A program made the position numbers and the translations under genes. A DNA stretch of 64,000 nt, from positions 96,001 to 160,000 of the IMG/VR virus record IMGVR_UViG_3300037851_000141. One strand, written 5' to 3'. Of the stretch, positions 15,432 to 63,284 are shown piece after piece. Within the stretch, counting starts at the first letter, position 1. The number at the start of each line of letters is the position of its first letter. Source of the stretch: a virus (Duplodnaviria; Caudoviricetes). The notes under the pieces were generated by a model. The model was not told where the DNA came from. It saw only the letters and a list, made by a program, of their open reading frames with translations, and ran no database searches.

Positions 15432-15443
15432 AAAAAAATAATC

Positions 15444-16556: not shown

Positions 16557-16626
16557 AAAAAATTAAAGAAAAATGAAGGGTCAAATTCTAAACTAATATA
16601 AACAAAGATAGGATATAATAATAAAA

Positions 16627-18495: not shown

Positions 18496-18497
18496 AA

Positions 18498-18530
18498 TAT
18501 AAATACCTTTAGTTGTATAATGTATTTATA
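18498..18530. promoter_or_regulatory. Two opposing late promoters (+ 18498-18505; - 18523-18530)
   Basis: Both exact TATAAATA; each lies upstream of one of the divergent genes. Confidence 0.7.
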
Positions 18531-18551
18531 AGTTTACTGAAGGAATAAATA

Positions 18552-19277: not shown

Positions 19278-19430
19278 TATTTATATATTTTATTCCGCAA
19301 GAAGAAAATGCTTGAACTTGATGTTGTATGTTGTATAATTGAAGCATCTTACAACACAATAAGAAATCATTAAGAAAAAGTTTAGGTTGGTAGAATAAAT
19401 ATACCTCACCAATAGAAAAAGGAAGTCAGT

Positions 19431-47532: not shown

Positions 47533-48606
47533 ATGAAATTTCCGGCCCACGTTATACATTCGATATTCTTTGAGATAATCGAAAAGGCAGCAACGGTCAG
47601 GAAGGCATCTGGTAAAACAGTCCTTCGTGGCCGTTGTCCTATTTGTGGCGATAGTAAAAATAAATATAAAACCCGATTCTACTGTCTTGAAAATCAAAAT
47701 CATTGGGTTGTTTATTGTCATAATTGCGGATATGAAAAAAGTTTCTTAGGCTTCCTTCAAGAGAATTATCCAGAAAAAGCGGATGGATTATCTTTACAAT
47801 GCTTCGAGATGATAAAATCTGGACAGGCTTTTTCTAAACGTTCATATGATAAAGAAGAAGTAAAAATAAAACCAAATCAAAAAATACATGATTATTTAAC
47901 TAAATTCTTTAATGAGAAATGTATAAAGTTAACGGAACCTCAGATAGAACCAAATAAAGAAAAATTTAGGTTATATGCTCTCAAGAAGATGAAAGATAGA
48001 CATATACCACAATTCTATATAAATCAGTTTTTCTTTTGTTATAAAGGTCTGTATAATTGGCGAGTGATTATCCCTTTTATTGATTCTCAGGGGCTTTATT
48101 ATAACTTTCAAGCCAGAGACATACACCCAAATCCAGATATATATAGAAAAAATAAAAAGTATATATTTGCTTCGTTTAAGGACATTGATTTACCAAGTGA
48201 TAAAATATATAGACAGCATCAAGTTGTAAAATCAAGGCCAGTCTATATTTGTGAAGGTATAATCGACTGCATGCACATTGAAAATGCTATAGCTCTGTGT
48301 AATGCCAATGTAACCGGAGATAAATCAGATTTTATAAGAAAAGAATATCCTCAGAGGGTTTGGATTCTTGATAGTCCTTGGCGTGATCAAACTGGATATG
48401 AAAGAACTCTCAAACTCCTTGAAATGGGAGAACGTTGTTTTATTGTTCCTCAAAAGGTTAATAATAAAGATGTAAAAGACATAAATGATATTGCTATTGC
48501 CACAGATCAGGATATAATATTACACGATTTCATTGAGCAAAATACTATTCAAGGTATGGTCGCTCTTATGAAATTGAAGACCTATAAAATTGGAAAGAAA
48601 GCATGA
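47533..48606 (+). CDS. gp61: DNA primase (gp61)
   Basis: RCPICGDS ... YCHNCG zinc finger, RVIIPF, FQAR, YICEGIID, WILD, KDINDI. Confidence 0.92.
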   Translation: MKFPAHVIHSIFFEIIEKAATVRKASGKTVLRGRCPICGDSKNKYKTRFYCLENQNHWVVYCHNCGYEKSFLGFLQENYPEKADGLSLQCFEMIKSGQAFSKRSYDKEEVKIKPNQKIHDYLTKFFNEKCIKLTEPQIEPNKEKFRLYALKKMKDRHIPQFYINQFFFCYKGLYNWRVIIPFIDSQGLYYNFQARDIHPNPDIYRKNKKYIFASFKDIDLPSDKIYRQHQVVKSRPVYICEGIIDCMHIENAIALCNANVTGDKSDFIRKEYPQRVWILDSPWRDQTGYERTLKLLEMGERCFIVPQKVNNKDVKDINDIAIATDQDIILHDFIEQNTIQGMVALMKLKTYKIGKKA

Positions 48607-49910
48607 GAACTTTAAGTATAGAACAACTGATAAATACGCAATATAAGAAATATTCCTTATATACGGTTGAATCCAGAGCTATTCCTTATATTACAGATGG
48701 TCTAAAGCCGGTTATGCGTCGTTCTTTATGGATTGGAACTAAATTGGCTAAAGATTGGGTTAAAGTCACCAAACTGGCTGGAGCTACCCTGTCCCTGCAT
48801 CCTCATGGTTCAACTTCGGTCGAGGACGCAATTTCAAGTAATGCTCAAAGATTTTCTGGTGCCAATAATGTTTGCTGGTTTAATGGAAAAGGGGCCTTCG
48901 GATCAAAAATTGTAGGTCCAGGCAATGGAATAGGTGCTGCTCGTTATGTTTCAGTAAAGCTATCAGATCACTTTTATAAGATTATGGATGTTGATCATGA
49001 TTTGATAGAACTTCAAGCAAACTATGATGATACTGAACAAGAACCTAAATCATTTTTACCATTAGTTCCAACTGTTTTACTAAATCCAGTTCAAGGTATT
49101 GCTGTTGGTTTCGCGTGTAATATTCTACCTCGTAAATTGGAAGATATAATACATTGTCAAATACAGCATATACAAGGTAAAGACTTCAGAGAACCAAAAG
49201 TATTCTTTGATGGGTTTAAGGGTAAAGTTGAAAAATTAGAACATAATACTTGGAAGGTCACGGGAGTATTTGAGAAAAAGGGCAACCAACTTCATATTAC
49301 AGAATTGCCGATTGGAACCAGCAGAGAACAGTTTATAAAGATATTGGATAACCTTGAAGATAAAGAAATAGTATCATCTTTTATTGATGGATGTACTGAT
49401 GAGTTTGACTTTATTGTAAACCTTAAAGTTGATCTTACAGATGATGAAATATACGAGAAATTTAAGTTATATAATACAATAAATGAAAATATAAATGTAA
49501 TAGATATAAGTGGTAAAATCAGAAATATGACAGTTTCGGAGATAATTAAAGAGTTTACTGATTATAGATTTAAGTTCTATTTGGCGAGATTTAAGAAACA
49601 GTTTCATGCTTTACGCGCCGAATTTGAGTTTGAAAAGGACTTATTAAGAGTTATACAGAAGGGATTATTCAAGAAATTCCCAAATCTTAAAAAGGCAGAA
49701 ATACATCAACTATTATTAGAGAATGAAATCAAAGAAGAAAATATACCAAAAATAATACAAACTCCAATATATAAATTCGGTAAAGATGAGATAGAAAAGA
49801 TAATAAATACATTAAAAGAACTAAAGATAAAATTGGAGAATCTGATAAAATTGTGTAAGAACGAAGATTTAAGAAAAGATGAATATATAAAAGAACTAAA
49901 AGGAATCTAA
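48603..49910 (+). CDS. gp52: Type II topoisomerase breakage-reunion subunit (gp52 / GyrA-like)
   Basis: DGLKPVMRR, HPHGSTS, GAFGS, AARY (catalytic Tyr), EP ... LP, GIAVGF, ITELP. Confidence 0.95.
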   Translation: MRTLSIEQLINTQYKKYSLYTVESRAIPYITDGLKPVMRRSLWIGTKLAKDWVKVTKLAGATLSLHPHGSTSVEDAISSNAQRFSGANNVCWFNGKGAFGSKIVGPGNGIGAARYVSVKLSDHFYKIMDVDHDLIELQANYDDTEQEPKSFLPLVPTVLLNPVQGIAVGFACNILPRKLEDIIHCQIQHIQGKDFREPKVFFDGFKGKVEKLEHNTWKVTGVFEKKGNQLHITELPIGTSREQFIKILDNLEDKEIVSSFIDGCTDEFDFIVNLKVDLTDDEIYEKFKLYNTINENINVIDISGKIRNMTVSEIIKEFTDYRFKFYLARFKKQFHALRAEFEFEKDLLRVIQKGLFKKFPNLKKAEIHQLLLENEIKEENIPKIIQTPIYKFGKDEIEKIINTLKELKIKLENLIKLCKNEDLRKDEYIKELKGI

Positions 49911-50752
49911 TGTCCACTATATTATTTGCCCAACCTGTATTTTTGCCAGATGAAAAAAGATTACAAAGAAATATAGACTCTTTATCATCGTTCTATCAAT
50001 ATATGAAAAATCAACCTGAATCTATTGGACAAAATGGACTTGTTCTGGCTATAGGTGGATGGGCTAAAACTGATGATCTTTGGAGTAGATTTTGTTCTTT
50101 CGTTAAAACAATATTTGATGGCAAACTTAATGTGCTACGCTTTGATAAAAACTATGGAAAAGCTATAGTTGTAAACACTTTGATAAAGAAAATACAAGAA
50201 CAAAATATCAAATTTGATTACATTTTTACTATGGATTCAGATATTATTTTCATTCAAGAGCAACGAAATATGTTTGTTCGGCTATTATATTCGGCTCATA
50301 AACTATCTTCAGTTAAAAAGATGCCATTTGGAATGATATCAATGAATCAGTCCGGTCAGAATTGTCACCTTCCTCATGTTTATGAAAATTCTGTAGACTT
50401 TACTGTTACAATTAATAATATTGTGTATACAGAAAAATTGGTTTGGCCAACTAATCCAAGTGGAATGGCCGGCGGGTGTTTATTCATTAGTAAAGATTAT
50501 TGGTGCAAAGTTGGTGGGTATAAAGTATTTGGGGTTTATGCTGGCGATGATGCTCATTTGTTATTGGATTGTGGGCGAATGGGATTTTCATATCAAATGT
50601 TTCACACATTAAGTATATTACATCCTATGGATAACGATGAAGAATATGCCCGGTGGAAGGTTCAAGCTTGTCAAGGAGATACAAGAACTGGATTAAAACA
50701 AAATATTGATTCTTCTATTAAAAATGCTGATGATTTTTGGGATAAACGATGA
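49910..50752 (+). CDS. GT-A glycosyltransferase
   Basis: FTMDSD (DxD), AGGCLFISK, VGGY, YAGDD. Confidence 0.72.
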   Translation: MSTILFAQPVFLPDEKRLQRNIDSLSSFYQYMKNQPESIGQNGLVLAIGGWAKTDDLWSRFCSFVKTIFDGKLNVLRFDKNYGKAIVVNTLIKKIQEQNIKFDYIFTMDSDIIFIQEQRNMFVRLLYSAHKLSSVKKMPFGMISMNQSGQNCHLPHVYENSVDFTVTINNIVYTEKLVWPTNPSGMAGGCLFISKDYWCKVGGYKVFGVYAGDDAHLLLDCGRMGFSYQMFHTLSILHPMDNDEEYARWKVQACQGDTRTGLKQNIDSSIKNADDFWDKR

Positions 50753-51855
50753 ATGTATTTTGTAATCCTACGGTGATTTTAATATATGGTATGCCCGGTA
50801 ATGGTAAATCATTTTTAGGAAACGAAATACATCAATTATCTAAAAATTCAATATTAATTCACAGTGATCTTTTATTTCATGAAGATGGTGATAGAAGAAT
50901 AATGTGGGATTTTTATAATAGTTTTCCAAATGGTAACATATATGACATAACGCTATCAAAAGAATTTACTAAATATAAGTTTTTAATGATATATAAATTG
51001 GTAAATAAAATAGAAAATATATTAGATGAGAACAAGTTTATTTCGAATATTATTATTGAAGGGTTTTCAGTTAAATATTTGATTGATTACTTAGAACTTT
51101 ATTTTAAGGAAAAAAATATTACTAAAGTATTGAAGTTCGAGATGAAAGCTAAAGAGATATTTAACGGAGATAATACAGTTATTGCTAATACTGATAAAAA
51201 ACTCGACAGTATAAAACGACTTATAACAGATGGCAATATATTAACTAAATCAAATTACCAATCTTTTGATTTTTTAGGTGATTGTAAAAAAGATAGCAGT
51301 TCTTGTGCTAAATATGAGTGTGCTAAATTAGATGATATTTCTCTTGAAAATAAGATAGTATTGGATATTGGTTGTAATGCTGGGTATTTTATTTATCGAT
51401 TACTTAATAAAAATCCCGAGAAAGTTATTGGATTGGATAATAGTGGGCATTATTGTTCAATAGCATATGAAATCAATAAGACTTATTTTGATTCTAATAA
51501 AGTTTTAATAATAAATGATTCTCTATTTAATATAAACGAAAGAGTTCATTTCATTTTATGTACATCAACTTTACATTATTTTGTTGATCAGCAGCAGAAT
51601 TTTTTCGATAAATGTTTTGACCTTCTTTATGATAATGGTCATTTGTTGGTTGAAGTTGAAGAATATGACCATAATGAAATGCCAGAAATTATAAAAAAGA
51701 GTAGAAATAATAGTCTTAGTTTTCTTGACTATCCCAATGAAAAAATGGTTCTTGAAATGATTAAAAATAAGTTTATAATACAAGACAAGTTTAAATCTGT
51801 ATTTCAACCGGGGCAATTTTTTGATAGGTATTTTTATTCATTGAGGCGACTATGA
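50749..51855 (+). CDS. Fusion of a P-loop kinase-like domain and a SAM-dependent methyltransferase
   Basis: YGMPGNGKS; VLDIGCNAGYF; STLHYF. Confidence 0.78.
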   Translation: MNVFCNPTVILIYGMPGNGKSFLGNEIHQLSKNSILIHSDLLFHEDGDRRIMWDFYNSFPNGNIYDITLSKEFTKYKFLMIYKLVNKIENILDENKFISNIIIEGFSVKYLIDYLELYFKEKNITKVLKFEMKAKEIFNGDNTVIANTDKKLDSIKRLITDGNILTKSNYQSFDFLGDCKKDSSSCAKYECAKLDDISLENKIVLDIGCNAGYFIYRLLNKNPEKVIGLDNSGHYCSIAYEINKTYFDSNKVLIINDSLFNINERVHFILCTSTLHYFVDQQQNFFDKCFDLLYDNGHLLVEVEEYDHNEMPEIIKKSRNNSLSFLDYPNEKMVLEMIKNKFIIQDKFKSVFQPGQFFDRYFYSLRRL

Positions 51856-52613
51856 GATTAGACTTAAAAGACTTAACATTTAATATACCAATACGATATG
51901 ACACAGAACATCGTATACAAAATATAAATTTGATTGTAGATTATATTCAATCTCATTTTGACACTAATATAATTGTAATGGAAGAATCATCGACACCAAG
52001 ATTCGATTATCTTAGGAATAAAGTTAATTATATTCATAAACATAGTAATGAACAGCATTTACATAGAACTAAATGTCTAAATGAAATGTCAAAAGTATCA
52101 AAAACTCCATATATTGCTAACTATGATGCTGATGTACTTTTTAGAGTTCAACAATACATTGACGCTATAAACATTTTAAGAAACTCTCAAGCAGATTTAG
52201 TGTTTCCGTATGCTGGCAGATTTATGGAATGTAATCGTGATCGTTTTTTCAATAGGATAAACGAATCAAAATCTGTTGAATGGATAAACGAATCAGACCT
52301 TCATTGTAATCATCCTCAATCAGTTGGTGGGGCTATTTTTTGGAATAAATCAAAATTTGTATCTATTGGAATGGAGAATGAGAATTTTAAGTCTTGGGGT
52401 TGGGAAGATGGAGAAAGATTTGTACGAGCGACAAAACTTGGACTTAGACCAGCAAGAACATTTGGAATTTTATATCATATGGACCATCAAAGATTAGCAG
52501 ATTCAACTCAAAATAATCCACATTACCAGAATAATATAAATGAATTTTCTAAAGTACAACATATGAGTCCTGCCGAATTAAATAATTATATAAAAACATG
52601 GGAGTGGCGATGA
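51852..52613 (+). CDS. GT-A glycosyltransferase, GT2/GT7-C-like
   Basis: YDADV, VGGAIFWNK, MENENFKSWGWED. Confidence 0.82.
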   Translation: MRLDLKDLTFNIPIRYDTEHRIQNINLIVDYIQSHFDTNIIVMEESSTPRFDYLRNKVNYIHKHSNEQHLHRTKCLNEMSKVSKTPYIANYDADVLFRVQQYIDAINILRNSQADLVFPYAGRFMECNRDRFFNRINESKSVEWINESDLHCNHPQSVGGAIFWNKSKFVSIGMENENFKSWGWEDGERFVRATKLGLRPARTFGILYHMDHQRLADSTQNNPHYQNNINEFSKVQHMSPAELNNYIKTWEWR

Positions 52614-54496
52614 ATATAATATTACCAATAGGTGGTCGTGGTGAAAGATTTAAGACTGATGGATATAGATTTCCAAAACCTCTTATAAATGTATTTGGTA
52701 AGCCTCTTATATTATGGGTGTTGGATAATCTTAATGTATCCGATGATGATAAGCTTTTTATTGTATATAATGAAGAACTTGATAACTATAATTTTAGTCA
52801 GATAGTAAAGTTTAGATATAAAAAGGCTAAGAATCTAAATTTTATAAAGATAAATTATTATACAAGAGGAGCAGCAGAGACTTTACTTTGTGGTTTAAAT
52901 CAGATTCCAAAAGAAGATATGGATAATCTGACGGTTTCTCTTGATTGTGACACCTTTTACGTTGATGATATTATAACAAAATGTAAAGAAAATAATAATA
53001 ATCTTATATTTTATTTTAATGATGTTGAAGAGAAACCAATTTATTCATACATTAAAACAAACAATATTGGTCAGGTTGTTGAAATAAAAGAAAAAATAAA
53101 AATATCCGACAACGCGAACACCGGAGCTTATTGTTTTAGAACAGCCAATCTTCTCAAATCATATTGTGAAAAACTTATTAGTACTCAATTAAGTCAAGAT
53201 AAAAAAGAATACTATGTCTCTCTTTTATATGATATGATTATTCGGGATATGGGTATTGTTTATTCAGCTAAAGTTGAAAAATTCCATTGTTTAGGTACAC
53301 CAGAGCAAGTTCAGTCTTTTTGTTTATTGAATCAAGAGAAAACGAAACCAAAGAGATTCTGTTTTGATCTTGACAATACCTTAGTAACATATCCAGTTAT
53401 TGATGGTGATTATACTTCAGTTTTACCTATACAAACTACAATAGATTATGTTAAATCATTAAAGCGTTTAGGTCATACGATAATAATATATACTGCCAGA
53501 AGAATGAAAACTCATAGTGGTAACGTTGGCGCTATAATTGCTGATGTTGGCAAGATAACTATTGATACATTGGCAAAATATGACATACCATACGATGAGC
53601 TTTATTTTGGTAAACCTTATGCTGACTTTTATATAGACGATTTAGGTGTCAATCCTTATTATGATATGCCAAAAGAACTTGGTTTTTATAAAGATACCAT
53701 AGATGCTCGTTCATTTAATAGTATAGAATTTCAAGATAAAACTATTATAAAAAGATCGAAAAATGGTAAATCTCTTGGTGAAATAACTTGGTATAGGCAT
53801 TTAACTCCAAACTCTATTGCTTCAATCTATGTTCCAAAATTGATTTCACATAATTCGGATGAGACTGAAATGACAATTGAACGTGTTGATGGTATTCCAG
53901 TTTCTTTATTATATATTAATGGTTCTATGACAAATGATATACTTAACTCTATATTTCGTGGGCTTTACTATATTCACATTCATCAAACAGAACATATTGA
54001 TATTCCAATAGATAATTGTTTTTACACTAACAAGCTTCGTGAGCGGTATGAATCTTATGATTATTCCTATTTAGGACCAGATATACATAACGAATATCTG
54101 GATTTAATGTCAAAATTAAGTCAATATGAACAAAAAATTTCTCAAAATACTTTTATACACGGAGATTCAGTTTTAACGAATATATTGCTTACTAAAAAAT
54201 CTGATATAATGTTTATTGATATGCGTGGAACCGTATTTGGAGATAAACTGTATGATTATGCTAAATTATATCAGTCAATAATTGGATATGATTTTATTCT
54301 TAATGATAAGCCTATAAATGATGATTATGTTAATAAATGGAAGACGATAATAGAACGTAATGTTACGACTACATTTACCGATAGAACAATAGAAGACCTC
54401 AAGTTGGTTACTCGCAGTTTATTATTTACTCTTATTCCATTACATAATAACGAAAAGTGTCATCAATATTACAAACTTATAAAGGATATTAAATGA
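52610..54496 (+). CDS. Three-domain protein: nucleotidyltransferase, BcbF/EcbF-type HAD phosphatase, APH/choline-kinase-like domain; likely start ATG 52610
   Basis: PIGGRGERF ... PKPLI; FDLDNTL ... YTARRMKTH ... GKPYADFYIDD; HGDSVLTNIL ... FIDMRG ... YDYAKLYQS. Confidence 0.85.
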   Translation: MNIILPIGGRGERFKTDGYRFPKPLINVFGKPLILWVLDNLNVSDDDKLFIVYNEELDNYNFSQIVKFRYKKAKNLNFIKINYYTRGAAETLLCGLNQIPKEDMDNLTVSLDCDTFYVDDIITKCKENNNNLIFYFNDVEEKPIYSYIKTNNIGQVVEIKEKIKISDNANTGAYCFRTANLLKSYCEKLISTQLSQDKKEYYVSLLYDMIIRDMGIVYSAKVEKFHCLGTPEQVQSFCLLNQEKTKPKRFCFDLDNTLVTYPVIDGDYTSVLPIQTTIDYVKSLKRLGHTIIIYTARRMKTHSGNVGAIIADVGKITIDTLAKYDIPYDELYFGKPYADFYIDDLGVNPYYDMPKELGFYKDTIDARSFNSIEFQDKTIIKRSKNGKSLGEITWYRHLTPNSIASIYVPKLISHNSDETEMTIERVDGIPVSLLYINGSMTNDILNSIFRGLYYIHIHQTEHIDIPIDNCFYTNKLRERYESYDYSYLGPDIHNEYLDLMSKLSQYEQKISQNTFIHGDSVLTNILLTKKSDIMFIDMRGTVFGDKLYDYAKLYQSIIGYDFILNDKPINDDYVNKWKTIIERNVTTTFTDRTIEDLKLVTRSLLFTLIPLHNNEKCHQYYKLIKDIK

Positions 54497-55248
54497 GAAC
54501 CGCTCTTTTATTTTATGGTCAGTTTAGATTTGTTGAAGAATGCTTCCAATCAATTAAACAAAATCTTATAGAACCAAATTTCCCTGATATATTCTTTCAT
54601 GGTTGGTATAGTGATGATGAAATAACCCAACCGTATAAGTTTGGCGGTAATGGCGGTTGGCAACATCAGAGAATAAAAAAAGATGCTCATAAAAAAGCCT
54701 TTGAGTTATATTCTCCAGTTAAGACAAAAATTGAACCTTCAAAAAAATTTTTAGATAAGAATATGGATTTCAGTCTTAGTATTCAGAGATATTATCGTGG
54801 CGCTTTAGAACGACCGGACATGAATCCAGACTTTCGTAATAAGATGATAAACAACATTCATAGTATGTGGTATTCAATTCACCAAAGTAATTTATTAAAA
54901 CAAGAATATGAACTTGATCGGGACTTTAAGTACGATTGTGTAATACGAAGTAGGTTTGATAATGTAATAAAAACAAGAATTGAAGTTGCTTCTTTAGATT
55001 TAAGTAAAATACACTATATTGAAATGGGTCAACCCGCACCTATGGTTTCAGATTGGTTGAATATCGGTAATAGTCAAAATATGGATGTTATAAATTCAAT
55101 ATATCCAAACATTAGTAAATATGTAGAACTTACCAAACGGGATACTGGTGGTTCTTTTTGTAGTGAGTTATTGATAAGAAAAGCTGCTGATATGTTTGGT
55201 ATTCCAGTACAACAACAAGGGTGGCATGTAGAATTGCCGAGGTTTTAG
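54493..55248 (+). CDS. Putative glycosyltransferase-related protein
   Basis: MRTALLFYGQFR and YDCVIRSRFD pattern, typical of viral glycan clusters as recalled; not verified by search. Confidence 0.55.
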   Translation: MRTALLFYGQFRFVEECFQSIKQNLIEPNFPDIFFHGWYSDDEITQPYKFGGNGGWQHQRIKKDAHKKAFELYSPVKTKIEPSKKFLDKNMDFSLSIQRYYRGALERPDMNPDFRNKMINNIHSMWYSIHQSNLLKQEYELDRDFKYDCVIRSRFDNVIKTRIEVASLDLSKIHYIEMGQPAPMVSDWLNIGNSQNMDVINSIYPNISKYVELTKRDTGGSFCSELLIRKAADMFGIPVQQQGWHVELPRF

Positions 55249-55251
55249 AAC

Positions 55252-56139
55252 ATGATAAATAACAAAAACGTCATTCTATGGGTTCCTGCGGGTCGTCAAC
55301 GGTATATGGAACTTCTCATACCCCATCTTATAAAGAATATTGAGTATGTTGACGAGATTCATTTGTGGCGGAATACTCGTAATGACTCAGATGCTCGTTA
55401 TCTTGAGTCTCTTGCTAATGTACATCCAAAAATAAAAATAAGAGAACATGGTAGACAGGAATATAAAGGTAAAGTCGAATATTTAAGGTTTGTCTATCCA
55501 GAATATAAAGAATCTAATACAGTCTATATAAAAGTCGATGATGATGTTGTATATATTGAGCCAAACAAGCTAAAATCATTTATAGAATTTCGTATAAACA
55601 ACCCACAATATTTTCTTGTTTACCCAATGACTGTCAATAATCCATTTTGTATGTGGAAAGCTTCTCGTTTAGGTATAATCCCAAATCTACCAAGCACTTA
55701 TGACTCTTGGGAATCTACAATAAAGACAGTTAAACCAAAAATACAACGTCGCTCAGAACCTCGCCTTACTCATTATATGGATGAAAAACAAGTTCTTTGT
55801 CCTGATTTTTGGGGTAATAACGATAATGCCTTAATGTTCCATAGACAACTGATTGAACATGGTCCAAATAAGTTCCATATGCCTAATTGGGAGTTGACTA
55901 ATAACGAAACAGTTTCAATCAATTTTATATCATGGTTGGGCGAGTCATTTCAAGAGTTTAATGGACAAGTTGATTCGTTTGAGGATGAAACTTGGCTTGC
56001 GACATTCTATCCAATATACTCCAATAAAATAAACTGTGTATATGGGGATTTTGTTGTTTCTCATTTCTCGTATTACCCTCAAATGAAATTTCTTGATTCA
56101 ACTGATTTATTGATGAGTTATGGTAAAATAAATGACTAA
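55252..56139 (+). CDS. Putative GT-A glycosyltransferase
   Basis: PAGRQRYME, YIKVDDDVVY, INFISW, SHFSY. Confidence 0.6.
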   Translation: MINNKNVILWVPAGRQRYMELLIPHLIKNIEYVDEIHLWRNTRNDSDARYLESLANVHPKIKIREHGRQEYKGKVEYLRFVYPEYKESNTVYIKVDDDVVYIEPNKLKSFIEFRINNPQYFLVYPMTVNNPFCMWKASRLGIIPNLPSTYDSWESTIKTVKPKIQRRSEPRLTHYMDEKQVLCPDFWGNNDNALMFHRQLIEHGPNKFHMPNWELTNNETVSINFISWLGESFQEFNGQVDSFEDETWLATFYPIYSNKINCVYGDFVVSHFSYYPQMKFLDSTDLLMSYGKIND

Positions 56140-56150
56140 AGGGATATGAA

Positions 56151-57110
56151 ATGAAAATTATTATATGGGGATACCCCCTTCATTCACATACACATTCTTA
56201 TATTCATGATGCTTTTTATCGAACGTTTAAGCACATGGGATATGAGACATATTGGTTTCATGATGGTGGATATCCAAAAGACTTTAATTGGGATGATTGT
56301 ATTTTTTGGACTGAGGGGTTTGCTGACAAGAATATTCCACTAAATAAAACATCAACTTATTTTGTTCACGTTTGTCCAAATCCTCGCAAATATATAGGAC
56401 AGGTAAAGAGATTCATTGATGTTCGGTATAATCACCTATGGCACAATGATCACTGTTATTCATACACAATCAATAAATCAGAGTTAAAAAAGGTCGGACC
56501 TTGTTGTTATCTCCAAGAAAAAGAGAATAAACAAATCAGAGTCAAGAATAACTATCAAGACTATATGATTGAAGATTATGATAAACTGTATTTCACATGG
56601 GCGGCCAATTTCTTCCCAGAACAGTTCAATTTAGATGATGTAAACTATCCAAGAAAAAATGTTATAAACTTCTGCGGTAATCTGACTTCTAATGGTCGGT
56701 GTGAAAATTTGTCAACATTTAGACCATTTATAGATGAATGTAATAAGCATCATATTCCATTTATCCACAATTGTCCATTCTCTAATCCATTAAGTGATGA
56801 TGAAGTAATCAAACGAACAAAAGAATCATTACTTGGTGTTGATATTCGTGGACCAGAACATATTAGAAATGGATATGTACCATGTCGAGTCTTCAAATCA
56901 ATAAGTTATGGCCATCTTGGTATGACGAATTCCAGAGAAGTATTCAATGAAATGGAAGGACATTGTATCTTTAACGAGAATACGGATCAATTGTTTCACG
57001 ATGCTATGGCTAAGAAAGACGATAAGGAATATATAAGAACTTCGATGTTATACGTTCGTGATAACCACACTTATATAAATAGAATAAACACCATATTAGG
57101 AATAATCTAA
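56151..57110 (+). CDS. Putative GT-B-like protein (CgeB/YkvP-type C-terminus)
   Basis: C-terminal GYVPCRVFKSISYG ... HTYINRI. Confidence 0.55.
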   Translation: MKIIIWGYPLHSHTHSYIHDAFYRTFKHMGYETYWFHDGGYPKDFNWDDCIFWTEGFADKNIPLNKTSTYFVHVCPNPRKYIGQVKRFIDVRYNHLWHNDHCYSYTINKSELKKVGPCCYLQEKENKQIRVKNNYQDYMIEDYDKLYFTWAANFFPEQFNLDDVNYPRKNVINFCGNLTSNGRCENLSTFRPFIDECNKHHIPFIHNCPFSNPLSDDEVIKRTKESLLGVDIRGPEHIRNGYVPCRVFKSISYGHLGMTNSREVFNEMEGHCIFNENTDQLFHDAMAKKDDKEYIRTSMLYVRDNHTYINRINTILGII

Positions 57111-57736
57111 TGAAAACAATCACAGAAATAGCAAAAAAATATTTTACCGATAAAGGTATTGAACTTATTCACGAAGGCAGAAATATTGCTCATGGATATT
57201 CTGTTCTATATGATCGCTATTTTGGTCATATGAGAAATGATACGTTGAATATTCTTGAGATTGGGTTAGGTGATGCTGCCGGAAGTGCGTTCTTATGGGC
57301 AGAAGTTTTTCCTAATGCTCAAATATATATGGCTGATTATGATCACAATAAAATAAATCGGTTCATGCCACAGGTTCCAAAAAATGTTCATATGATTTAT
57401 GCCGATCAATCAAACCGAAACTCGCTGAACAATTTGTCTAGCCAGATTCCTAATAATATGGATATAATAATAGATGATGGTAGCCATAAGAATGATCACA
57501 TTATATTATCGTTTGATGTTCTGTTTCCTAAATTGAAAGATGGTGGAGTTTATATAATTGAAGACACATATCAATCCTATACGGAATCGGGTGAAACCCC
57601 AATTATGTTCTTTAAGGATATCATTGACCGTATAAATGATTATTTGTCTGATAAAAAAGATATATATGGAATAAACTCAATACATTTTTATCGCAACCTT
57701 ATTCTCGTTTTTAAGGGTGAAAAAATAACAAAATGA
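57110..57736 (+). CDS. SAM-dependent O-methyltransferase, sugar O-MTase-like
   Basis: ILEIGL, DIIIDDGSH, LFPKLKDGGVYIIED. Confidence 0.85.
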   Translation: MKTITEIAKKYFTDKGIELIHEGRNIAHGYSVLYDRYFGHMRNDTLNILEIGLGDAAGSAFLWAEVFPNAQIYMADYDHNKINRFMPQVPKNVHMIYADQSNRNSLNNLSSQIPNNMDIIIDDGSHKNDHIILSFDVLFPKLKDGGVYIIEDTYQSYTESGETPIMFFKDIIDRINDYLSDKKDIYGINSIHFYRNLILVFKGEKITK

Positions 57737-58419
57737 CCATTGGCGCATATTTACAGGTATATAAAAATAATAATAAAGTTGATTTTGTTTTAAGCAAGTT
57801 TCGTGAAATATACCCTGATGCTCCAATATATCTTGTATCTGATGCGGGCGACGATTTTACAGAGTTATCAAAAAAATATAATTGTTTTTATGAACATGCT
57901 ACATTGAATACTGGAGTTAGTCATATCGGGTTTAATAAAGAACAGACCCTAACTTGGCTTCTCCGATTCTATAATGCTTGTAAATATGTAAATACGGACC
58001 ACATTATATATCTTGAGGATGATGTTTTAGTAAGACGCCCAATACAAATAAACCCAGAATGGAATATTGCTGGAGTACTCATAAATGAGATACCAGCATG
58101 TATAGTCGAGTATCTTAGAACTAAACATAATGCCGTTTTTAATACTACTTTATATGGTGCTTGCGGTGGAACAATATATAAATGTAGCGAACTAATAAAA
58201 ATCTACGATAATATGGTTTCGTTTATTAACTCTGATTTTGACGTTTTTTATCGTGATCTTGGTGTACATTTTGGATTTCTTGATATGTTCATGCCTATAT
58301 TTTTTATGATGAATGGATATAGATATGAACAGAATACAGAATTGATAGAAAGTCATCGGAATTCAAGTTGGAGACATTCACATCATTCAATAGTACATGG
58401 TAAGGAAATCTATGGCTGA
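57733..58419 (+). CDS. Putative GT-A glycosyltransferase
   Basis: LVSDAGDD, IIYLEDDVL, YGACGG. Confidence 0.55.
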   Translation: MTIGAYLQVYKNNNKVDFVLSKFREIYPDAPIYLVSDAGDDFTELSKKYNCFYEHATLNTGVSHIGFNKEQTLTWLLRFYNACKYVNTDHIIYLEDDVLVRRPIQINPEWNIAGVLINEIPACIVEYLRTKHNAVFNTTLYGACGGTIYKCSELIKIYDNMVSFINSDFDVFYRDLGVHFGFLDMFMPIFFMMNGYRYEQNTELIESHRNSSWRHSHHSIVHGKEIYG

Positions 58420-59356
58420 AGGAAAATCATACACAAGTAATGTATCTAAACTACTTAAACATCTTGACAAATTACAAGGATTACAGAATGGTGTTGTTTC
58501 GCCAATTATGGTTCATCTTGCTCTTACTAATATATGTAATCTTCGCTGTTCTTTTTGTTGCTTTGCTAATCGTAAGCGGAGCGAAGTTCTATCGTTAGAT
58601 GATGTAAAATCTGTTCTGAATCAATTTCGTCAGTTAGGTACAAGTGCTGTTGAATTTACTGGCGGCGGTGAACCTCTTTTACACCCTAATATAAATGACA
58701 TTGCTCAATATGCTTATGATTCTGGTTATAGTCTTGGAGTTTGTACTAATGGAACATGTGTAAACCGAATAAAGAATTGGGATTTATTCAAGTGGGTACG
58801 TTTAGGTCTTTATTTTGTAGATAACGATTATAATATTGATATTGAATACCTTAAGCAATTCAAGCAAGTAGATATTAGTGGTGCTTATGTGTGGGACAAT
58901 CCAAATCCAGACTTATTCTATAAAATGATAAACTTCGCAGAAACCCATAAAATTCCAACTCGTATTGCCGTAAATGCTATCAAACCAACTGATCAAATCC
59001 TGAGAGACATGGATATTGTGAGCGAACAGTTAAGTAAGGTTGATCGGAAGTATGTATTCTTGTCTGACTTTAATCTCAAAACAGAACGTCGAAATAATAA
59101 GTGCTTTGTACATATGATAAAACCATTTGTATTCCCTGATAGAAACGTATATGCTTGTCCATCAGCAGAACTCGCAGTAGAAAATGGAATAAATGTAAAC
59201 GATGAATTTAAGTTATGTAGCATTGATAAAATATTAGAATTCTATCAAAAAGGTGTATCAGTTCGTAATCATAACTGTTCATTCTGTAAATACGCTCAAC
59301 AAAATGAATTGATTGAAGACCTATTAGTGAGGACAACCCACAATGAATTCGCCTAA
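58412..59356 (+). CDS. Radical SAM enzyme with a SPASM/twitch-like C-terminus; likely start ATG 58412
   Basis: CNLRCSFC (CX3CX2C), FTGGGEPLLH; C-terminal C ... YACP ... CSFC. Confidence 0.9.
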   Translation: MAEGKSYTSNVSKLLKHLDKLQGLQNGVVSPIMVHLALTNICNLRCSFCCFANRKRSEVLSLDDVKSVLNQFRQLGTSAVEFTGGGEPLLHPNINDIAQYAYDSGYSLGVCTNGTCVNRIKNWDLFKWVRLGLYFVDNDYNIDIEYLKQFKQVDISGAYVWDNPNPDLFYKMINFAETHKIPTRIAVNAIKPTDQILRDMDIVSEQLSKVDRKYVFLSDFNLKTERRNNKCFVHMIKPFVFPDRNVYACPSAELAVENGINVNDEFKLCSIDKILEFYQKGVSVRNHNCSFCKYAQQNELIEDLLVRTTHNEFA

Positions 59357-59966
59357 ATACGATGAAGATTATTATGAGAATGGTATAAAATGTGGAATAA
59401 GTGGATACGAAAATTATCACTATATGCCAACCAGAAGTTATAGCGAAGCAATTTCAATACATAAAAACATAGAATTTACTGATTGTATAGATTATGGTTG
59501 CGCTAAAGGGTTTCTGGTACACGCACTAAATCAATTAGGACATTATACTATTGGCTTGGATATTAGTGAGTATGCTATTCAACATTGTTTGCCGACAGTA
59601 CAAGATAAGGTATATTTACTTAATGATACAATTACAAATATGGGATTTCAGACTGACCTTCTCATAGCTAAAGACGTACTTGAACATATAGCAGAACAAG
59701 ACATTACAACGGTATTATCTGACTTCAAGAATGTGTGTAATAAAGCTCTTTTAGTAATACCCCTTGGCGACAACGATTTATTCCGAATACGAGAATATGA
59801 AATAGATAAAACTCATATAACTAAAAAGAATGAAGATTTTTGGATTGATAAGATAAGGGAAGTTGGATTTAAGTTGACATCATTTGATTATTGTTTAGGA
59901 GACGTTAAAAAGAAGTGGGTTGACCAGTATCCCCATGGCAATGGCTTTTTCATTATTGAGAGCTAA
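59343..59966 (+). CDS. SAM-dependent methyltransferase
   Basis: IDYGCAKGF, GLDISEYAI, DVLEHI. Confidence 0.88.
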   Translation: MNSPKYDEDYYENGIKCGISGYENYHYMPTRSYSEAISIHKNIEFTDCIDYGCAKGFLVHALNQLGHYTIGLDISEYAIQHCLPTVQDKVYLLNDTITNMGFQTDLLIAKDVLEHIAEQDITTVLSDFKNVCNKALLVIPLGDNDLFRIREYEIDKTHITKKNEDFWIDKIREVGFKLTSFDYCLGDVKKKWVDQYPHGNGFFIIES

Positions 59967-59968
59967 CC

Positions 59969-60805
59969 ATGGATAAGACCTTTTTTTATATAGTTGGTGG
60001 TCAGCAAGTCCATTATGATAATATTATGCGGAGTATTAGAAGTCTTCGCCAATTTGATAAAAAATCCAAAATAATGATATTTGAGGTTGGTGATAAGTTA
60101 AAGACAACAGCAGATTATATTGTTATCAATCAACCAAATATTATTGATTTAAACCATAAAGGTAAGATCGGGTTCAAGTTTTGGAAGCAGAAATACGTTG
60201 CCGCCCTTTACGTTAATACAGAATACGGCATATATATGGACAGCGATACAGTTGTTGTTAATGATAATTTTGACGAACTGTTGACAAAAATAGGTGATAA
60301 AGTTGGTTCGGCTCAACATTTTTGGGTTCCTACAATTGGGGAATTTCATAATAAGGCTGTTCCACCGCAGAATAGGCAATCGTTTAATTCTGTGATATCT
60401 CGGCTCGGTTGTTCAAATGACACTCCATTGTTTGCTGGCGGAATCTTTATGTTTAAGAATACTCCAATAATAAAAAATATAATGAATGATACCTTATATG
60501 TTTATGATGATGTTTATTCTGTTGATTCATCTTATATAACTGGATTAACGGATGAGATATTCTTTTCAGGCATATTAAACAAGTACAATTCCTCATATAG
60601 ATTAAATGGAGCATTAAATCATTGTTGTATGGGTGATGCTTTGATGCCAGTAAAATATGAAAATGGATTGTTATATGGACGGAACACATGGGAGTCTGAA
60701 TGGGAGAAAATAACCTTATTCCATTGCGATCCTACGAGAAGAAATCCCGCCAAAGATTATAATGGTATAGTACAGCAACAAATACAGAAAGCGTGGTCAG
60801 TATGA
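59969..60805 (+). CDS. GT-A glycosyltransferase, GT8-like
   Basis: YMDSDTVV (DxD), FAGGIF, DEIFF, LNHCC. Confidence 0.65.
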   Translation: MDKTFFYIVGGQQVHYDNIMRSIRSLRQFDKKSKIMIFEVGDKLKTTADYIVINQPNIIDLNHKGKIGFKFWKQKYVAALYVNTEYGIYMDSDTVVVNDNFDELLTKIGDKVGSAQHFWVPTIGEFHNKAVPPQNRQSFNSVISRLGCSNDTPLFAGGIFMFKNTPIIKNIMNDTLYVYDDVYSVDSSYITGLTDEIFFSGILNKYNSSYRLNGALNHCCMGDALMPVKYENGLLYGRNTWESEWEKITLFHCDPTRRNPAKDYNGIVQQQIQKAWSV

Positions 60806-61764
60806 GATTTTGTATAGTTGGTCCAGGAATAATGCCAATACCACCTACCGGCTGGGGTGCTGTTGAAATTCTTATTTGGGATTATGCTCAAACTTTACAA
60901 AATCTTGGCCATGAAGTCCGAATCGTAAATACACCTAATCATCAAGATATAATCCGTCAATGTAATGAGTTTAATGCCGATATTACCCATATACAATACG
61001 ATGATTTTTGGCATGTTGTTCCTCATATCAATAGCAGAATCAAAGCTATTACGAGCCATTACGGTTATATTACCCAAGTCGGTCAACGTCCAATAACACA
61101 GGGATACATACCAATCGTAAATGGCTTTAAGCAAATATCAGATAAAGCATATATATTTTGTTTATCACCCGAAATAAAACAATCATATATAAGGTTAGGT
61201 ATTCCAGAAAATAAATTGGTCGTAACTCCTAATGGTGCCAGAACCGATTTATTTAGATATTCTCCAACATGTGAGTTAGCCGACCAATCAATCTTCTTGG
61301 CTAAAGTTGATTACAGAAAACGTCAACGGCTCGCTCAAGTTGGCGCTAATGTTTACTTTGTTGGTAATATTGATAGAAACAACTCTGGTGGGTTTATCCA
61401 AGACAGATTTTATCATGGTGAATGGACAAAACAACAAATATACCAAGACTTAACCAGATACGCCAACTTAGTATTATTGTCTGACGGTGAAGCAGATCCG
61501 TTAGTGACAAAAGAAGCAATGATGTCCGGTTTGGGATTGGTTATATCAGAATATTCAACCGCTAATCTTGATTTATCTAAGCCCTTTATTGATGTGATAC
61601 CAGAATCCCGTATAAATGATGCTGGCTATGTAAAATCAGTTATAGAATCAAATCGTATCAAATCAGCATCAATGAGATCAGAGATTCGTCAATATGCTGA
61701 ACAAAATTTTAGTTGGTCTGCCTTGATAGAGAAATATGTTCAGATGATTGGGGGTTTAGTATGA
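60802..61764 (+). CDS. GT4 (GT-B) glycosyltransferase; likely start ATG 60802
   Basis: PGIMPIPPTGWGAVE, VTPNGA, EADPLVTKEAMMSG (EX7E). Confidence 0.85.
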   Translation: MRFCIVGPGIMPIPPTGWGAVEILIWDYAQTLQNLGHEVRIVNTPNHQDIIRQCNEFNADITHIQYDDFWHVVPHINSRIKAITSHYGYITQVGQRPITQGYIPIVNGFKQISDKAYIFCLSPEIKQSYIRLGIPENKLVVTPNGARTDLFRYSPTCELADQSIFLAKVDYRKRQRLAQVGANVYFVGNIDRNNSGGFIQDRFYHGEWTKQQIYQDLTRYANLVLLSDGEADPLVTKEAMMSGLGLVISEYSTANLDLSKPFIDVIPESRINDAGYVKSVIESNRIKSASMRSEIRQYAEQNFSWSALIEKYVQMIGGLV

Positions 61765-62435
61765 ATGTTGGAATAATCATAATAGCAACGCACAAATATA
61801 TCAGATTTGTTCCTCAATTATATCAATCAATAAAAGATAATTTCTTGAAGAATCATAATGTATCTGTATTTGTTCTTACTGATCAACCTGAAGTGCCAAA
61901 TGGCTGTATAAAGGTTCCATTTCCACACAGACCTTGGCCATATTCAACTCTTATGCGATTCCATGGATTTACAGACAATCAACAGTACTTTAATGGTCAG
62001 GATTACTTATATTATATTGATGCTGATACAAGAGTCATTAATGTTGGTGATGAAGTGTTAGGCGATTTGGTTGGAACGGTTCATCCTGGTTGGTACAATC
62101 GTAGACCAGTAGATTTGTGTTATGACCGAAATCCTGTGAGTAAAGCATATGTCAAACCGGGTGATGGAAGACATTATTATTTTGGAACGTTCTTTGGTGG
62201 TAAAGCCTCTGAGTTTATGAAAATGTCGCATACGCTAAGAAATAATGTTGAAGAAGATTTATCAAAGAATACAATAGCACTCTGGCATGACGAGTCTCAT
62301 ATGAATAGATATTTCATTGATAATCCACCAACAATCTCATTACATCCTGGTTATGGTTATCCCGAAAGTTGGAGATTGCCATTTGATAAGCACATTTTGG
62401 CTTTAGATAAAAATCACGAAGAAATTAGAACTTAG
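61761..62435 (+). CDS. GT6-family (ABO-like) glycosyltransferase; likely start ATG 61761
   Basis: IIATHKYIRF, VFVLTDQP, YYIDAD, LVGTVHPG, FFGG, ALWHDESHMNRYF, ALDKNH. Confidence 0.88.
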   Translation: MNVGIIIIATHKYIRFVPQLYQSIKDNFLKNHNVSVFVLTDQPEVPNGCIKVPFPHRPWPYSTLMRFHGFTDNQQYFNGQDYLYYIDADTRVINVGDEVLGDLVGTVHPGWYNRRPVDLCYDRNPVSKAYVKPGDGRHYYFGTFFGGKASEFMKMSHTLRNNVEEDLSKNTIALWHDESHMNRYFIDNPPTISLHPGYGYPESWRLPFDKHILALDKNHEEIRT

Positions 62436-63229
62436 ATAAACTTAAATGGTATTTCGTAATGAGGACTATTTGGATTTAGACCATATATATTTTCGGTAGA
62501 TATTACTTTACCACCTAAAAATATCTGATTCAATATGTCGTTCCCAAAGTAATGATTTAGTCCAGCATGATTAAGATTTTCATTTTGTACACGGTTTACT
62601 GGAATATTCATGATTTTAGATTCGTTGAAACATAACATAAGAGTCTTTGACATAGTTCCGCTTTGAGAATCAAGATATCCTTCTAAGGTGTTTGGCGCTC
62701 GGTAATTGCCGTTGAAGAACATATGCTTAATGTCAGAAAATCTAAATATATGACCATCTAAAGATAAAGGATACTCCCAATCAGAAGGGAACGGAGTCTG
62801 TCTCTTCCAATTCCATGTCCTATCTTGGTTGAATGGCGGAAGTGAACATGATTTCTTCTGAGTATAGCAATAGTTTATATGTGGAGATAGACGTAGACTT
62901 AATGTTAATATATCTGGTCGGTTGAAAAATGTCTTAACTTCTGTTTCGTTTAATGAAAAGTTGCGAATAAAAACAATATCATCAACGAGAAACATTTTAT
63001 ACTCGTCATCATTTAGATTAGATAATAAATCATTTCTAAAGTTAGATTCTTTTACGTAACTAAATTCAGGATGTATCTGTCTTACTTTATTATATCCAGC
63101 ATCAAAATCTGGAGTTGTTGCCCGATAAATTACTTTAATATCGGCAAATCCAATCCATTTGTCTTTTATAGAACGCAAAAGAAGTTCAAGTTGGGCGGTT
63201 CTGTCTTTACTGAATATTAGGGTCTGCAT
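62432..63229 (-). CDS. Putative glycosyltransferase-like protein
   Basis: IFSKDRTAQLELLLRS, FLVDDIVF, YPLSLDGHIF. Confidence 0.55.
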   Translation of the reverse strand: MQTLIFSKDRTAQLELLLRSIKDKWIGFADIKVIYRATTPDFDAGYNKVRQIHPEFSYVKESNFRNDLLSNLNDDEYKMFLVDDIVFIRNFSLNETEVKTFFNRPDILTLSLRLSPHINYCYTQKKSCSLPPFNQDRTWNWKRQTPFPSDWEYPLSLDGHIFRFSDIKHMFFNGNYRAPNTLEGYLDSQSGTMSKTLMLCFNESKIMNIPVNRVQNENLNHAGLNHYFGNDILNQIFLGGKVISTENIYGLNPNSPHYEIPFKFI

Positions 63230-63258
63230 GACAACTATTATATTATCTTTCTAAAAAA

Positions 63259-63266
63259 TATAAATA
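63259..63266 (+). promoter_or_regulatory. Late promoter (Clp-like ATPase)
   Basis: Exact match 19 nt upstream of the ATG. Confidence 0.65.
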
Positions 63267-63284
63267 CGATAGTGAGGGCCGCTT

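Follow-up and report, generated by a model that had tools for sequence, protein, structure and literature searches.

What does a large phage build with a dense island of glycosyltransferase (GT) genes, and on what acceptor would the product be placed? The question is raised by a 64,000-nucleotide stretch of DNA, here called the window, which comprises bases 96001-160000 of a 331,849-bp IMG/VR virus record (IMGVR_UViG_3300037851_000141; completeness estimate 92%) and carries at positions 49910-63229 an island of 15 genes. The conclusion that the island, together with sugar-nucleotide genes elsewhere in the window, builds a complex methylated oligosaccharide is well supported. As to the acceptor, we favour, tentatively and with somewhat less than even confidence, the reading that virion proteins of the phage itself are glycosylated by the island's enzymes, in the cytoplasm and ahead of particle assembly.

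Gene content of the island

Gene families were assigned from Pfam, NCBIfam and PHROG scans, Atlas look-ups, PDB searches and two AlphaFold models (g01 and g05). The genes, in window positions, are the following.

49910-50752, + strand: g01, GT2-fold (GT-A) glycosyltransferase with a DSD motif (weak Pfam GT2 match; model with a predicted local distance difference test score, pLDDT, of 96)
50749-51855, + strand: g02, N-terminal P-loop domain (GMPGNGKS) joined to a class I S-adenosylmethionine (SAM) methyltransferase (Methyltransf_9/31/12/25 and CmoB-like matches)
51852-52613, + strand: g03, GT-A glycosyltransferase, Glyco_transf_7C-like, with a DAD motif (Pfam E 1e-5; PHROG 15655 E 2.4e-48)
52598-54496, + strand: g04, triple fusion of a sugar-1-phosphate nucleotidyltransferase, a HAD phosphatase and an APH-fold kinase (Pfam, NCBIfam and PDB profiles)
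54493-55248, + strand: g05, divergent GT-A-like protein of the DUF7796 family (PHROG 13607 E 7.7e-41; Atlas; fold model)
55252-56139, + strand: g06, GT-like protein with a DDD motif (PHROG 4447 'glycosyltransferase' E 2e-19 over residues 5-136; no Pfam family)
56151-57110, + strand: g07, probable GT-B-type transferase (weak Glyco_trans_1_2 match, E 0.004)
57110-57736, + strand: g08, SAM methyltransferase of the Methyltransf_24/TylF type, the sugar O-methyltransferase class (Pfam E 9.8e-6; PHROG 21658 E 8e-19)
57733-58419, + strand: g09, GT8-like GT-A protein with an EDD motif (weak Pfam GT8 match)
58397-59356, + strand: g10, radical SAM enzyme with C-terminal cysteines (Pfam E 7.6e-14)
59343-59966, + strand: g11, class I SAM methyltransferase (Methyltransf_11/25; PHROG 27380 E 3.7e-29)
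59969-60805, + strand: g12, GT8-like GT-A protein with a DSD motif (no Pfam or PHROG match; Atlas)
60802-61764, + strand: g13, GT4 (GT-B) glycosyltransferase (Glyco_transf_4 E 1.2e-8; PHROG 33732 E 5e-105)
61761-62435, + strand: g14, GT6 retaining alpha-1,3-glycosyltransferase whose DAD motif is intact (Pfam E 1.9e-37; NCBIfam 'family 6 glucosyltransferase' E 4.7e-58)
62432-63229, - strand: g15, GT-A glycosyltransferase from a family found mostly in viruses, in convergent orientation to g14 (Atlas model with a predicted template modelling score, pTM, of 0.92; nearest clusters named 'glycosyltransferase')

Fourteen genes thus lie on the + strand (49910-62435) and one on the - strand. When the junction of g01 with the preceding topoisomerase gene 52 is counted, 11 of the 14 junctions overlap by 1-23 nucleotides (nt) and the remaining three are gaps of 2-11 nt; the last two + strand genes start at ATG 60802 and ATG 61761, each with an ATGA overlap. 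A preliminary description of this DNA, made from the letters alone, had seen 14 contiguous, mostly coupled genes: the positions and the coupling hold, with the open reading frames (ORFs) exactly as stated there, and the count becomes 15 with g15 on the - strand. Its estimate of about nine GT or GT-like genes was right as to their abundance, the number now being ten (g01, g03, g05, g06, g07, g09 and g12-g15), while its three SAM methyltransferases (g02, g08 and g11), single radical SAM enzyme (g10, with CxxxCxxC at residue 47) and single fused nucleotidyltransferase/HAD phosphatase/kinase (g04) were all recovered. It had further proposed a branched, methylated oligosaccharide; a complex and methylated product is a reasonable reading that all annotations fit, whereas branching was not borne out.

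Support for the assignments is strong for g13, g14, g04, g10, g11, g01 and g03, and weak or at the fold level only for g05, g06, g07, g09, g12 and g15. The match of g14 to the GT6 catalytic domain is full-length (profile positions 73-312), its DAD motif (residues 87-89) aligns with NAN of BoGT6a, and among PDB sequences it matched BoGT6a (E 6e-44, residues 1-220) and the human ABO transferases (~3e-32), so that g14 appears to belong to CAZy family GT6. The g01 family comprises 365 cluster representatives in which D109 and D111 are invariant; its profile gave no significant match to PDB sequences, and its AlphaFold2 model matched WrtF, GlfT2, TarP and RmlT in Foldseek with template modelling (TM) scores of 0.5-0.57. 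The AlphaFold2 model of g05 (pLDDT 87) matched GT-A folds of the GT6/GT8 type. We considered these two folds as indicators of the acceptor and dropped them, since such generic GT-A matches do not separate protein, polysaccharide and nucleic-acid acceptors. In Atlas, g12 falls among phage 'nucleotide-diphospho-sugar transferase' clusters and structurally matches GT8 lipopolysaccharide (LPS) transferases (TM ~0.7), and the g15 model reaches TM 0.88 to the GT-A part of GT-D-fused Bacillota proteins. The best PDB matches of g10, confined to its N-terminal core, are BlsE, viperin-like enzymes and DesII, and g10 probably modifies a sugar. A second radical SAM gene, a distant relative of g10 (phmmer E 1.2e-8), lies far from the island at G000:C1:276792-277763, in coordinates of the whole record.

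No paralogous pairs were found among the island proteins. All 15 are predicted to be soluble, the highest 19-residue Kyte-Doolittle mean being 1.33 against a cut-off of 1.6.

A fused enzyme and the supply of sugar nucleotides

The nucleotidyltransferase domain of g04 matches PDB 4evw (E 2.6e-23), its HAD domain matches PDB 1xpj (E 3.7e-23) and the NCBIfam 'capsule biosynthesis phosphatase', and 19 homologues all keep the catalytic motifs GxGxR, FDxDxT and HGDxxxxN unchanged. By tblastn, the HAD and kinase parts also match AfhF/AfhE-type genes of T4-like phages such as KARL-1, genes that have been assigned, in a route studied by experiment, to the synthesis of uridine diphosphate (UDP)-arabinose through a C1 kinase acting on arabinose 5-phosphate, removal of the 5-phosphate and uridylylation (PMC13326640, 2026). 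With a nucleotidyltransferase, a HAD phosphatase, an APH-fold kinase and their catalytic motifs, g04 appears to be an enzyme of the AfhE/AfhF type, and given this three-step precedent it most likely converts a sugar-omega-phosphate to a nucleoside diphosphate (NDP)-sugar via the 1,omega-bisphosphate, in one protein. The SIS_2 model had no match in the whole genome, and hence no arabinose-5-phosphate isomerase was found by that model (PF01380 was not run); host KdsD could be the supplier of D-arabinose 5-phosphate.

The company kept by g04 homologues points to a different product. At E <=1e-10 there are 3476 of them among database proteins, the best 120 being full-length with 44-63% identity, and they occur on 283 IMG/VR stretches, of which 80 loci (L018-L097) were fetched for neighbour counts. 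In these viral loci the triple fusion is 39-53% identical to g04, on contigs of up to 1.15 Mb, and its commonest neighbours are GT1/GT4 (22), NDP-sugar dehydratases or epimerases (21), the g05 family (19), GT2 (16), GT61 (13) and DegT (12), with GlmS nearby in five loci. Since NDP-sugar dehydratases or epimerases are the second commonest neighbour and DegT aminotransferases occur in 12 loci, these statistics point to an NDP-hexose rather than arabinose as the product of g04. In many of the loci a DUF7796-family gene like g05 lies directly beside the g04 homologue, so that the two genes form a conserved pair. Some 32 of the 80 loci come from contigs with the IMG/VR name GVMAG (giant-virus bins), which carry GlmS, intein-bearing ribonucleotide reductase and helicase genes and very large multi-GT proteins; the genes they have in common with this phage are g04 and, in some, g05. 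Multi-domain relatives of g01 also occur on contigs labelled as giant-virus bins.

Two further genes for sugar nucleotides lie outside the island.

38502-39497, + strand: rmlB-like NDP-sugar 4,6-dehydratase/epimerase (Pfam Epimerase E 8e-35, GDP_Man_Dehyd E 3e-30)
39499-40788, + strand: fusion of an RmlC-like cupin and an RmlD-like reductase (RmlD_sub_bind E 6.5e-10, residues 156-354)

RmlB-like and RmlD-like domains of the rhamnose pathway are thus present, and the RmlC part is recognised by an N-terminal DDRGFVSE motif read by eye; a homologue of the fusion with 50% identity is found in a relative of this phage (L099). There is no separate RmlA in the window, and from the presence of rmlB and rmlC/D without rmlA we infer that the nucleotidyltransferase domain of g04 may substitute for it, supplying NDP-glucose for rhamnose synthesis.

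A variable island behind a constant first gene

The record contains the T4-type genes for portal, DNA polymerase B, gp41-type replicative helicase, topoisomerase II, RegA, gp32 and UvsY, as well as an SbcC-like (gp46/47-like) nuclease, ribonucleotide reductase and a gp13-like neck protein. Since no cultured phage has a DNA polymerase more than 31.5% identical to its own, the virus appears to be a distant, uncultured T4-like jumbo phage of 332 kb. A megablast of the island against 50,697 phage records gave no match, and a gene-52 pattern scan of IMG/VR found no relative; four relatives in all were recovered via protein look-ups with g04 and g01 homologues. All four keep the succession of clamp loader, RegA, primase-like gene and gene 52, with a g01 homologue next in line. 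In L016, whose core genes are ~80% identical, g01 (67%), g03 (73%), g04 (62%) and g05 (84%) are retained, together with an extra TylF methyltransferase and no g02. In L098, with core genes ~60% identical, the island holds g01, a g02-like gene (30% identical to g02 and at the same place), GT17, an FkbM methyltransferase, GT1, a UDP-GlcNAc 2-epimerase, rmlB, rmlC and rmlD, and on another relative's contig it includes a GT29 gene.

The comparison of island content among relatives that the preliminary description had proposed therefore returns fixed flanks and a fixed g01 with differing genes behind them, in L016, in L098/L099 and in two contigs represented without DNA. A constant g01 with varying content behind it marks the island as a hypervariable site whose first gene does not change. 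Since g01 is kept at the start of the island in every relative recovered, it is likely to be the initiating transferase, and the genes behind it would be diversifying extensions. This arrangement fits a fixed acceptor with a diversifying glycan.

The same arrangement bears on whether the glycan might be placed on some other cytoplasmic acceptor, such as non-virion phage or host proteins, or be released as a free methylated polysaccharide or a glycosylated small molecule. All the enzymes are soluble and none is tied to a given acceptor, and the best solved relatives of g10, BlsE and DesII, act on nucleoside-sugar or NDP-sugar small molecules. However, such acceptors are without phage precedent, and hypervariability behind a fixed first gene would be expected of an exposed, selected surface structure and not of an internal metabolite; we regard acceptors of this kind as clearly unlikely.

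Virion proteins and the host envelope as possible acceptors

The virion and the host surface, the two acceptors originally put forward for this island, both stay candidates. Among the observations that lean, each of them weakly, towards virion proteins is a candidate attachment motif, [ST]G[ST][ST]G[ST], of which the whole genome has eight copies, only in five ORFs of the virion module, where 0.26 copies were expected from shuffles; four control phages have none. The five ORFs lie on the - strand before the window (G000 coordinates 5338-7173, 15048-16760, 16771-20853, 35488-36240 and 63858-65042), and one of them encodes the gp13-like neck protein. Three of the copies are in a single protein of 250 amino acids. 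The copies are mostly written in different codons, with one pair alone sharing a 17-nt string.

Further observations, likewise weak, lean in the same direction. Genome-wide, 58 of 80 copies of the late-promoter motif TATAAATA lie 0-60 nt ahead of a start codon, with a mode of 15-29 nt, and one copy is found within the island.

57074-57081, + strand: TATAAATA, T4-type late promoter motif, 28 nt ahead of the g08 start

Its position at the modal distance would weakly favour a virion acceptor. So, to a similarly weak degree, might the g04-g05 module that the phage has in common with giant-virus-labelled contigs, and the match of the g15 model to the GT-A part of GT-D-fused proteins.

Several points weigh against virion proteins as the acceptor. 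The phage is uncultured and the island is known from sequence alone, the S/T-G loops could be plain flexible linkers, and the cultured cyanophage SynMITS9220M01, which shares six island genes, is without the S/T-G motif. The late-promoter motif, although supported by its spacing, was not seen in the islands of L016 and L098, and we therefore give it little weight; hallmark genes did not confirm the giant-virus label of the GVMAG contigs. In addition, the island is placed within the early/middle replication block, unlike in mycobacteriophages, where such genes adjoin the structural ones, and the modelled folds of g01 and g05 are no closer to protein-specific than to polysaccharide transferases. 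Finally, the published view of cyanophage and pelagiphage islands is one of host-surface remodelling (PMC7824862, PMC7029224).

For that alternative, the question of membrane machinery is central. Across the whole 332-kb genome, a crude hydropathy scan found no ORF with more than four weak hydrophobic segments and there was no Bac_transf match (the PF00953, Wzx/Wzy and GtrA models were not run); therefore, the phage itself seems to lack a flippase, a polymerase, a ligase, an oligosaccharyltransferase and a priming transferase. It does not appear to encode a Wzx/Wzy- or ABC-dependent O-antigen or capsule cluster, a class that has a priming transferase, a flippase or ABC exporter, a polymerase and a ligase. 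This fits direct cytoplasmic glycosylation, and it likewise fits the hijacking of host lipid-linked intermediates with export by the host. In the latter case, the soluble transferases would act at the inner membrane face on host undecaprenyl-linked or lipid A-core intermediates, and host flippase, ligase and export would display an altered O-antigen or capsule that blocks superinfection or the sticking of progeny to debris. The missing phage export genes are compatible with this if the host supplies them, LPS and capsule clusters have the same GT2, GT4, GT8-like and GT6 families and rhamnose genes, and most island genes run in the same direction as the early/middle replication genes, g15 having its own upstream region with a sigma-70-like site at 63264-63237 (-). 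Known serotype-converting phage systems carry membrane proteins such as GtrA/B/C; unlike in those systems, no membrane-anchored component was found here. Ten transferases, moreover, amount to a near-complete new unit that would still have to be accepted by the host flippase and ligase, and the g04-g05 module is also found on contigs labelled as giant-virus bins, and the hosts of giant viruses lack LPS. For the homologous islands of cyanophages and pelagiphages, a remodelled host envelope is the explanation currently put forward, yet the papers that make this proposal contain no experimental support (PMC7824862, PMC7029224, PMC12801897), and for the present island we rank it second, behind virion proteins, as a doubtful explanation.

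Restriction-site avoidance and DNA as a possible acceptor

In T4, RB69/DLP3, RL38J1 and TET-dependent clusters, transferases glycosylate a hydroxylated pyrimidine in phage DNA, and the island transferases might do the same. Consistent with this, the HAD and kinase parts of g04 are homologous to UDP-arabinose genes of DNA-arabosylating phages (PMC13326640), and the island lies in the replication block, as do T4 gene 42 and beta-gt. The genome has a second, divergent thymidylate synthase (TS) homologue that shares with hydroxymethylases an Asp at E. coli position 143, and LPS-type transferases have been documented to build glycans of as many as three sugars on DNA (bioRxiv 10.1101/2023.12.21.572611).

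An indirect test of whether the bases are masked is given by the observed/expected ratio (O/E) of palindromes, calculated over the whole genome from a maximal-order Markov expectation; 63 six-bp palindromes had enough expectation. Their median O/E was 0.46, with 51% below 0.5 and 19 of the 63 absent from the 332 kb. TGCA (0.12) and CTAG (0.24) were depleted, and ACCGGT and CAGCTG had no copies against 38 and 29 expected per strand, respectively. In the controls, the median was 0.90 for T4, which has glucosyl-hydroxymethylcytosine, and 0.91 for KARL-1, which has a 5-hydroxycytosine signature, with no palindrome absent from either, while Klebsiella phage May had a median of 0.85 with one absent and SynMITS9220M01 one of 0.87 with six absent. 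Avoidance this extreme, far stronger than in T4, KARL-1, May and SynMITS9220M01, points to bases that are accessible to restriction enzymes. It is the mark of type II restriction selection and would not persist under global masking of C or T, and DNA is therefore unlikely to be the acceptor. Sparse or sequence-specific modification may be compatible with such avoidance.

Other evidence points the same way. The genome is without a TET/JBP enzyme and without a C5 methylase, and normal ThyA and DHFR are present. The island transferases gave no tblastn match to T4 beta-GT or the KARL-1 (arabinosyl)transferases at E 0.01 (T4 alpha-GT was not compared), and SynMITS9220M01 shares six island genes yet is without a TS-family gene. 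Thus DNA, which the preliminary description had kept as an acceptor that was not excluded, now appears highly improbable in this role.

The TS-like gene lies between ThyA and DHFR at G000:C1:168324-169220 (L005:1243-2139), 8.3 kb past the window end. Its product keeps the catalytic Cys and Asp169 and has Asp at E. coli position 143 (by the criteria of PMC13326640), while an Asn at position 177 hinges on one alignment gap. It belongs to a family of >4000 members, 62-71% identical, with YDP(P/A)CLQS and RSNDAWGAxFMN invariant, that occurs in Bacteroidota/Kryptoniota chromosomes beside a normal ThyA and in phages; the best phage matches of the gene itself are to Ackermannviridae and SPO1-like phages. 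From its identity to Bacteroidota proteins and a GC content of 35%, a Bacteroidota host would be a guess. The family has no transferase neighbours in Bacteroidota chromosomes or in another phage, which again speaks against DNA as the acceptor. As a putative dUMP hydroxymethylase in support of DNA modification, the gene was dropped, since its family is one of bacterial chromosomes alongside ThyA and without transferase neighbours.

Comparison with known systems

'LPS/capsule-like' islands have been described repeatedly in T4-like cyanophages and pelagimyophages and explained as acting on the host surface; examples are those of P-SSM2, S-SCSM1, S-SCSM2R (13 GTs) and SynMITS9220M01, and the 'capsular polysaccharide modification systems' of Iyer et al. 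2021 (PMC7824862; PMC7029224; PMC12801897). The likeness to islands of T4-like cyanophages noticed at the outset was confirmed, in that six genes (g05, g07, g09, g10, g11 and g13) have homologues with 31-55% identity in the SynMITS9220M01 island (within its genes 194-212). The individual identities include 46% for g07, 31% for g09, 44% for g10, 55% for g11 and 44-45% for g13, which matches two genes, and g09-g10-g11 are syntenic with SynMITS9220M01. As in those T4-like aquatic myoviruses, many distinct soluble transferases are combined with sugar-nucleotide enzymes, and content varies among relatives. By its backbone, mixed GTs and sugar-nucleotide enzymes, homology and variable content, the island appears to belong to the 'LPS/capsule-like' class and would be a further case of a gene-cluster kind described several times in print. 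It differs in belonging to a phage of another lineage, as judged by the polymerase, in whose genome psbA was not found, and in its place behind gene 52 in the replication block, whereas the cyanophage islands lie in a tail-fibre 'host recognition cluster'. Furthermore, the cyanophage islands activate sugars with a PfkB kinase and a HIGH nucleotidyltransferase, and the present phage has the triple-fusion enzyme.

That enzyme shares its logic of C1 kinase, HAD phosphatase and nucleotidyltransferase with the AfhE/AfhF pathway to UDP-arabinose in RB69, DLP3 and HY126, phages whose 5-hydroxycytosine is arabinosylated (PMC13326640); the families are the same, and the HAD domains of both match PDB 1xpj. 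The present phage, however, joins the three activities in one polypeptide. It also differs in having no isomerase by the SIS_2 model, no D169N TS homologue and no DNA transferase homologue, and the neighbouring dehydratases point to an NDP-hexose.

In giant viruses, the particles are glycosylated by enzymes that the virus itself encodes and that work in the cytoplasm (PMC9614988, PMC10117803). The systems of chlorovirus PBCV-1 (A064R and others) and the fibril clusters of Mimivirus/Megavirinae resemble the island in being virus-encoded, cytoplasmic and soluble and in combining transferases of several families with sugar methyltransferases and rhamnose synthesis, and the g04-g05 module and the multi-domain g01 relatives on giant-virus-labelled contigs add to the likeness. 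On the other hand, giant viruses have eukaryotic hosts, and their glycans and acceptors are experimentally known; the present system is described from genes alone, and the homology is to single modules.

Two cytoplasmic systems of protein glycosylation provide additional comparisons. Mycobacteriophage virions are reportedly O-glycosylated by phage-encoded soluble transferases that modify capsid and tail proteins in the cytoplasm, as Freeman et al. are said to have described in 2023. Those phages have one to few transferases beside the structural genes and C-terminal acceptor tails, whereas the present phage has ten, distant from the structural genes, and its candidate sites are internal loops. 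In streptococci, serine-rich repeat adhesins receive a branched glycan by cytoplasmic, sequential, lipid-free O-glycosylation through GtfA/B, GT8 enzymes and dGT1 (GT4, GT8 and GT2-type), and it is dGT1 in which the GT-D fold was defined. The g15 match to GT-D-fused Bacillota proteins is a point of likeness; the present phage is without a GtfA/B pair, an accessory Sec system and long serine-rich repeats, and the analogy is functional only.

A proposed cytoplasmic assembly line

We propose that the island acts as a complete assembly line, which makes a sugar chain in the cytoplasm and needs no lipid carrier of the phage's own. As suggested by its domain logic and the AfhE/AfhF precedent, g04 would phosphorylate C1 of a phosphosugar from central metabolism, remove the distal phosphate and add a nucleotide, yielding an NDP-sugar without host mutase or RmlA. 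The rmlB and rmlC/D genes, 9 kb upstream, would then convert NDP-glucose to NDP-L-rhamnose, and a different sugar may be modified by g10. To judge by fold and family, the ten soluble transferases would add sugars sequentially, with g01 the likely initiator, the variable genes extending the chain and the GT6 enzyme g14 adding a terminal alpha-1,3 sugar; the three methyltransferases would O-methylate sugars. The chain could be carried, as we would guess with rather less than even confidence, by serine/threonine loops of virion proteins, much as chloroviruses, mimiviruses and some mycobacteriophages modify their particles. In its most specific form, the proposal is that a methylated, rhamnose-containing oligosaccharide is built in the cytoplasm and put on (S/T)G(S/T)(S/T)G(S/T) loops of neck, baseplate and fibre proteins with a toolkit that the phage shares with giant viruses of eukaryotes; taken as a whole, this combination is open to considerable doubt.

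GT genes are frequent in large aquatic phages and have been explained since 2005, without experiments, as host-surface tools. The present island is a clean case in a new T4-like lineage, in a phage apparently without membrane machinery, and the finding is descriptive as it stands. If the specific proposal were true, glycan-coated virions would be widespread among large aquatic viruses, whatever the domain of their hosts. If virion proteins are the acceptor, their glycosylation would influence how abundant environmental phages adsorb, aggregate, are grazed and are recognised by antibodies or lectins. The fused phosphosugar-to-NDP-sugar enzyme turns up, as does its partner transferase, on hundreds of viral contigs, some of which are binned as giant viruses. 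In addition, restriction-site avoidance, with hypermodified phages as controls, offers an argument against a DNA acceptor that needs only sequence and is applicable to other islands.

Flanking genes and other features

Outside the island, the window holds the following further genes of relevance.

13545-15431, + strand: two-domain GT2 protein of 628 amino acids (Glycos_transf_2 E 5e-15, Glyco_tranf_2_5 E 9e-14)
48603-49910: topoisomerase gene 52, directly before g01 (Pfam DNA_topoisoIV 1.4e-73)
From 63285, + strand: ClpX-type AAA gene, the next gene past g15

The preliminary description had placed two further GT genes, in addition to rmlB and rmlCD, elsewhere; rmlB and the rmlC/D-like fusion are in the window, whereas only one further GT gene, that of the 628-residue protein, was seen. 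An N-terminus common to this protein and a 173-residue post-capsid protein was considered and rejected as not significant, since 112 of 2000 shuffles reached the score. Its first ~75 residues do resemble the N-terminus of a helix-rich ORF of 203 amino acids (G000:C1:210306-210917), a score that none of 2000 shuffles reached.

At the contig start, a tandem repeat is indicated, in that the first 100 bases of G000:C1:1-260 recur at position 129. At the downstream edge of the island, window positions 63230-63284 form a short divergent control region between g15 (-) and the ClpX-like gene (+), and a further copy of the late motif TATAAATA, on the + strand, stands 18 nt ahead of the ClpX-like gene.

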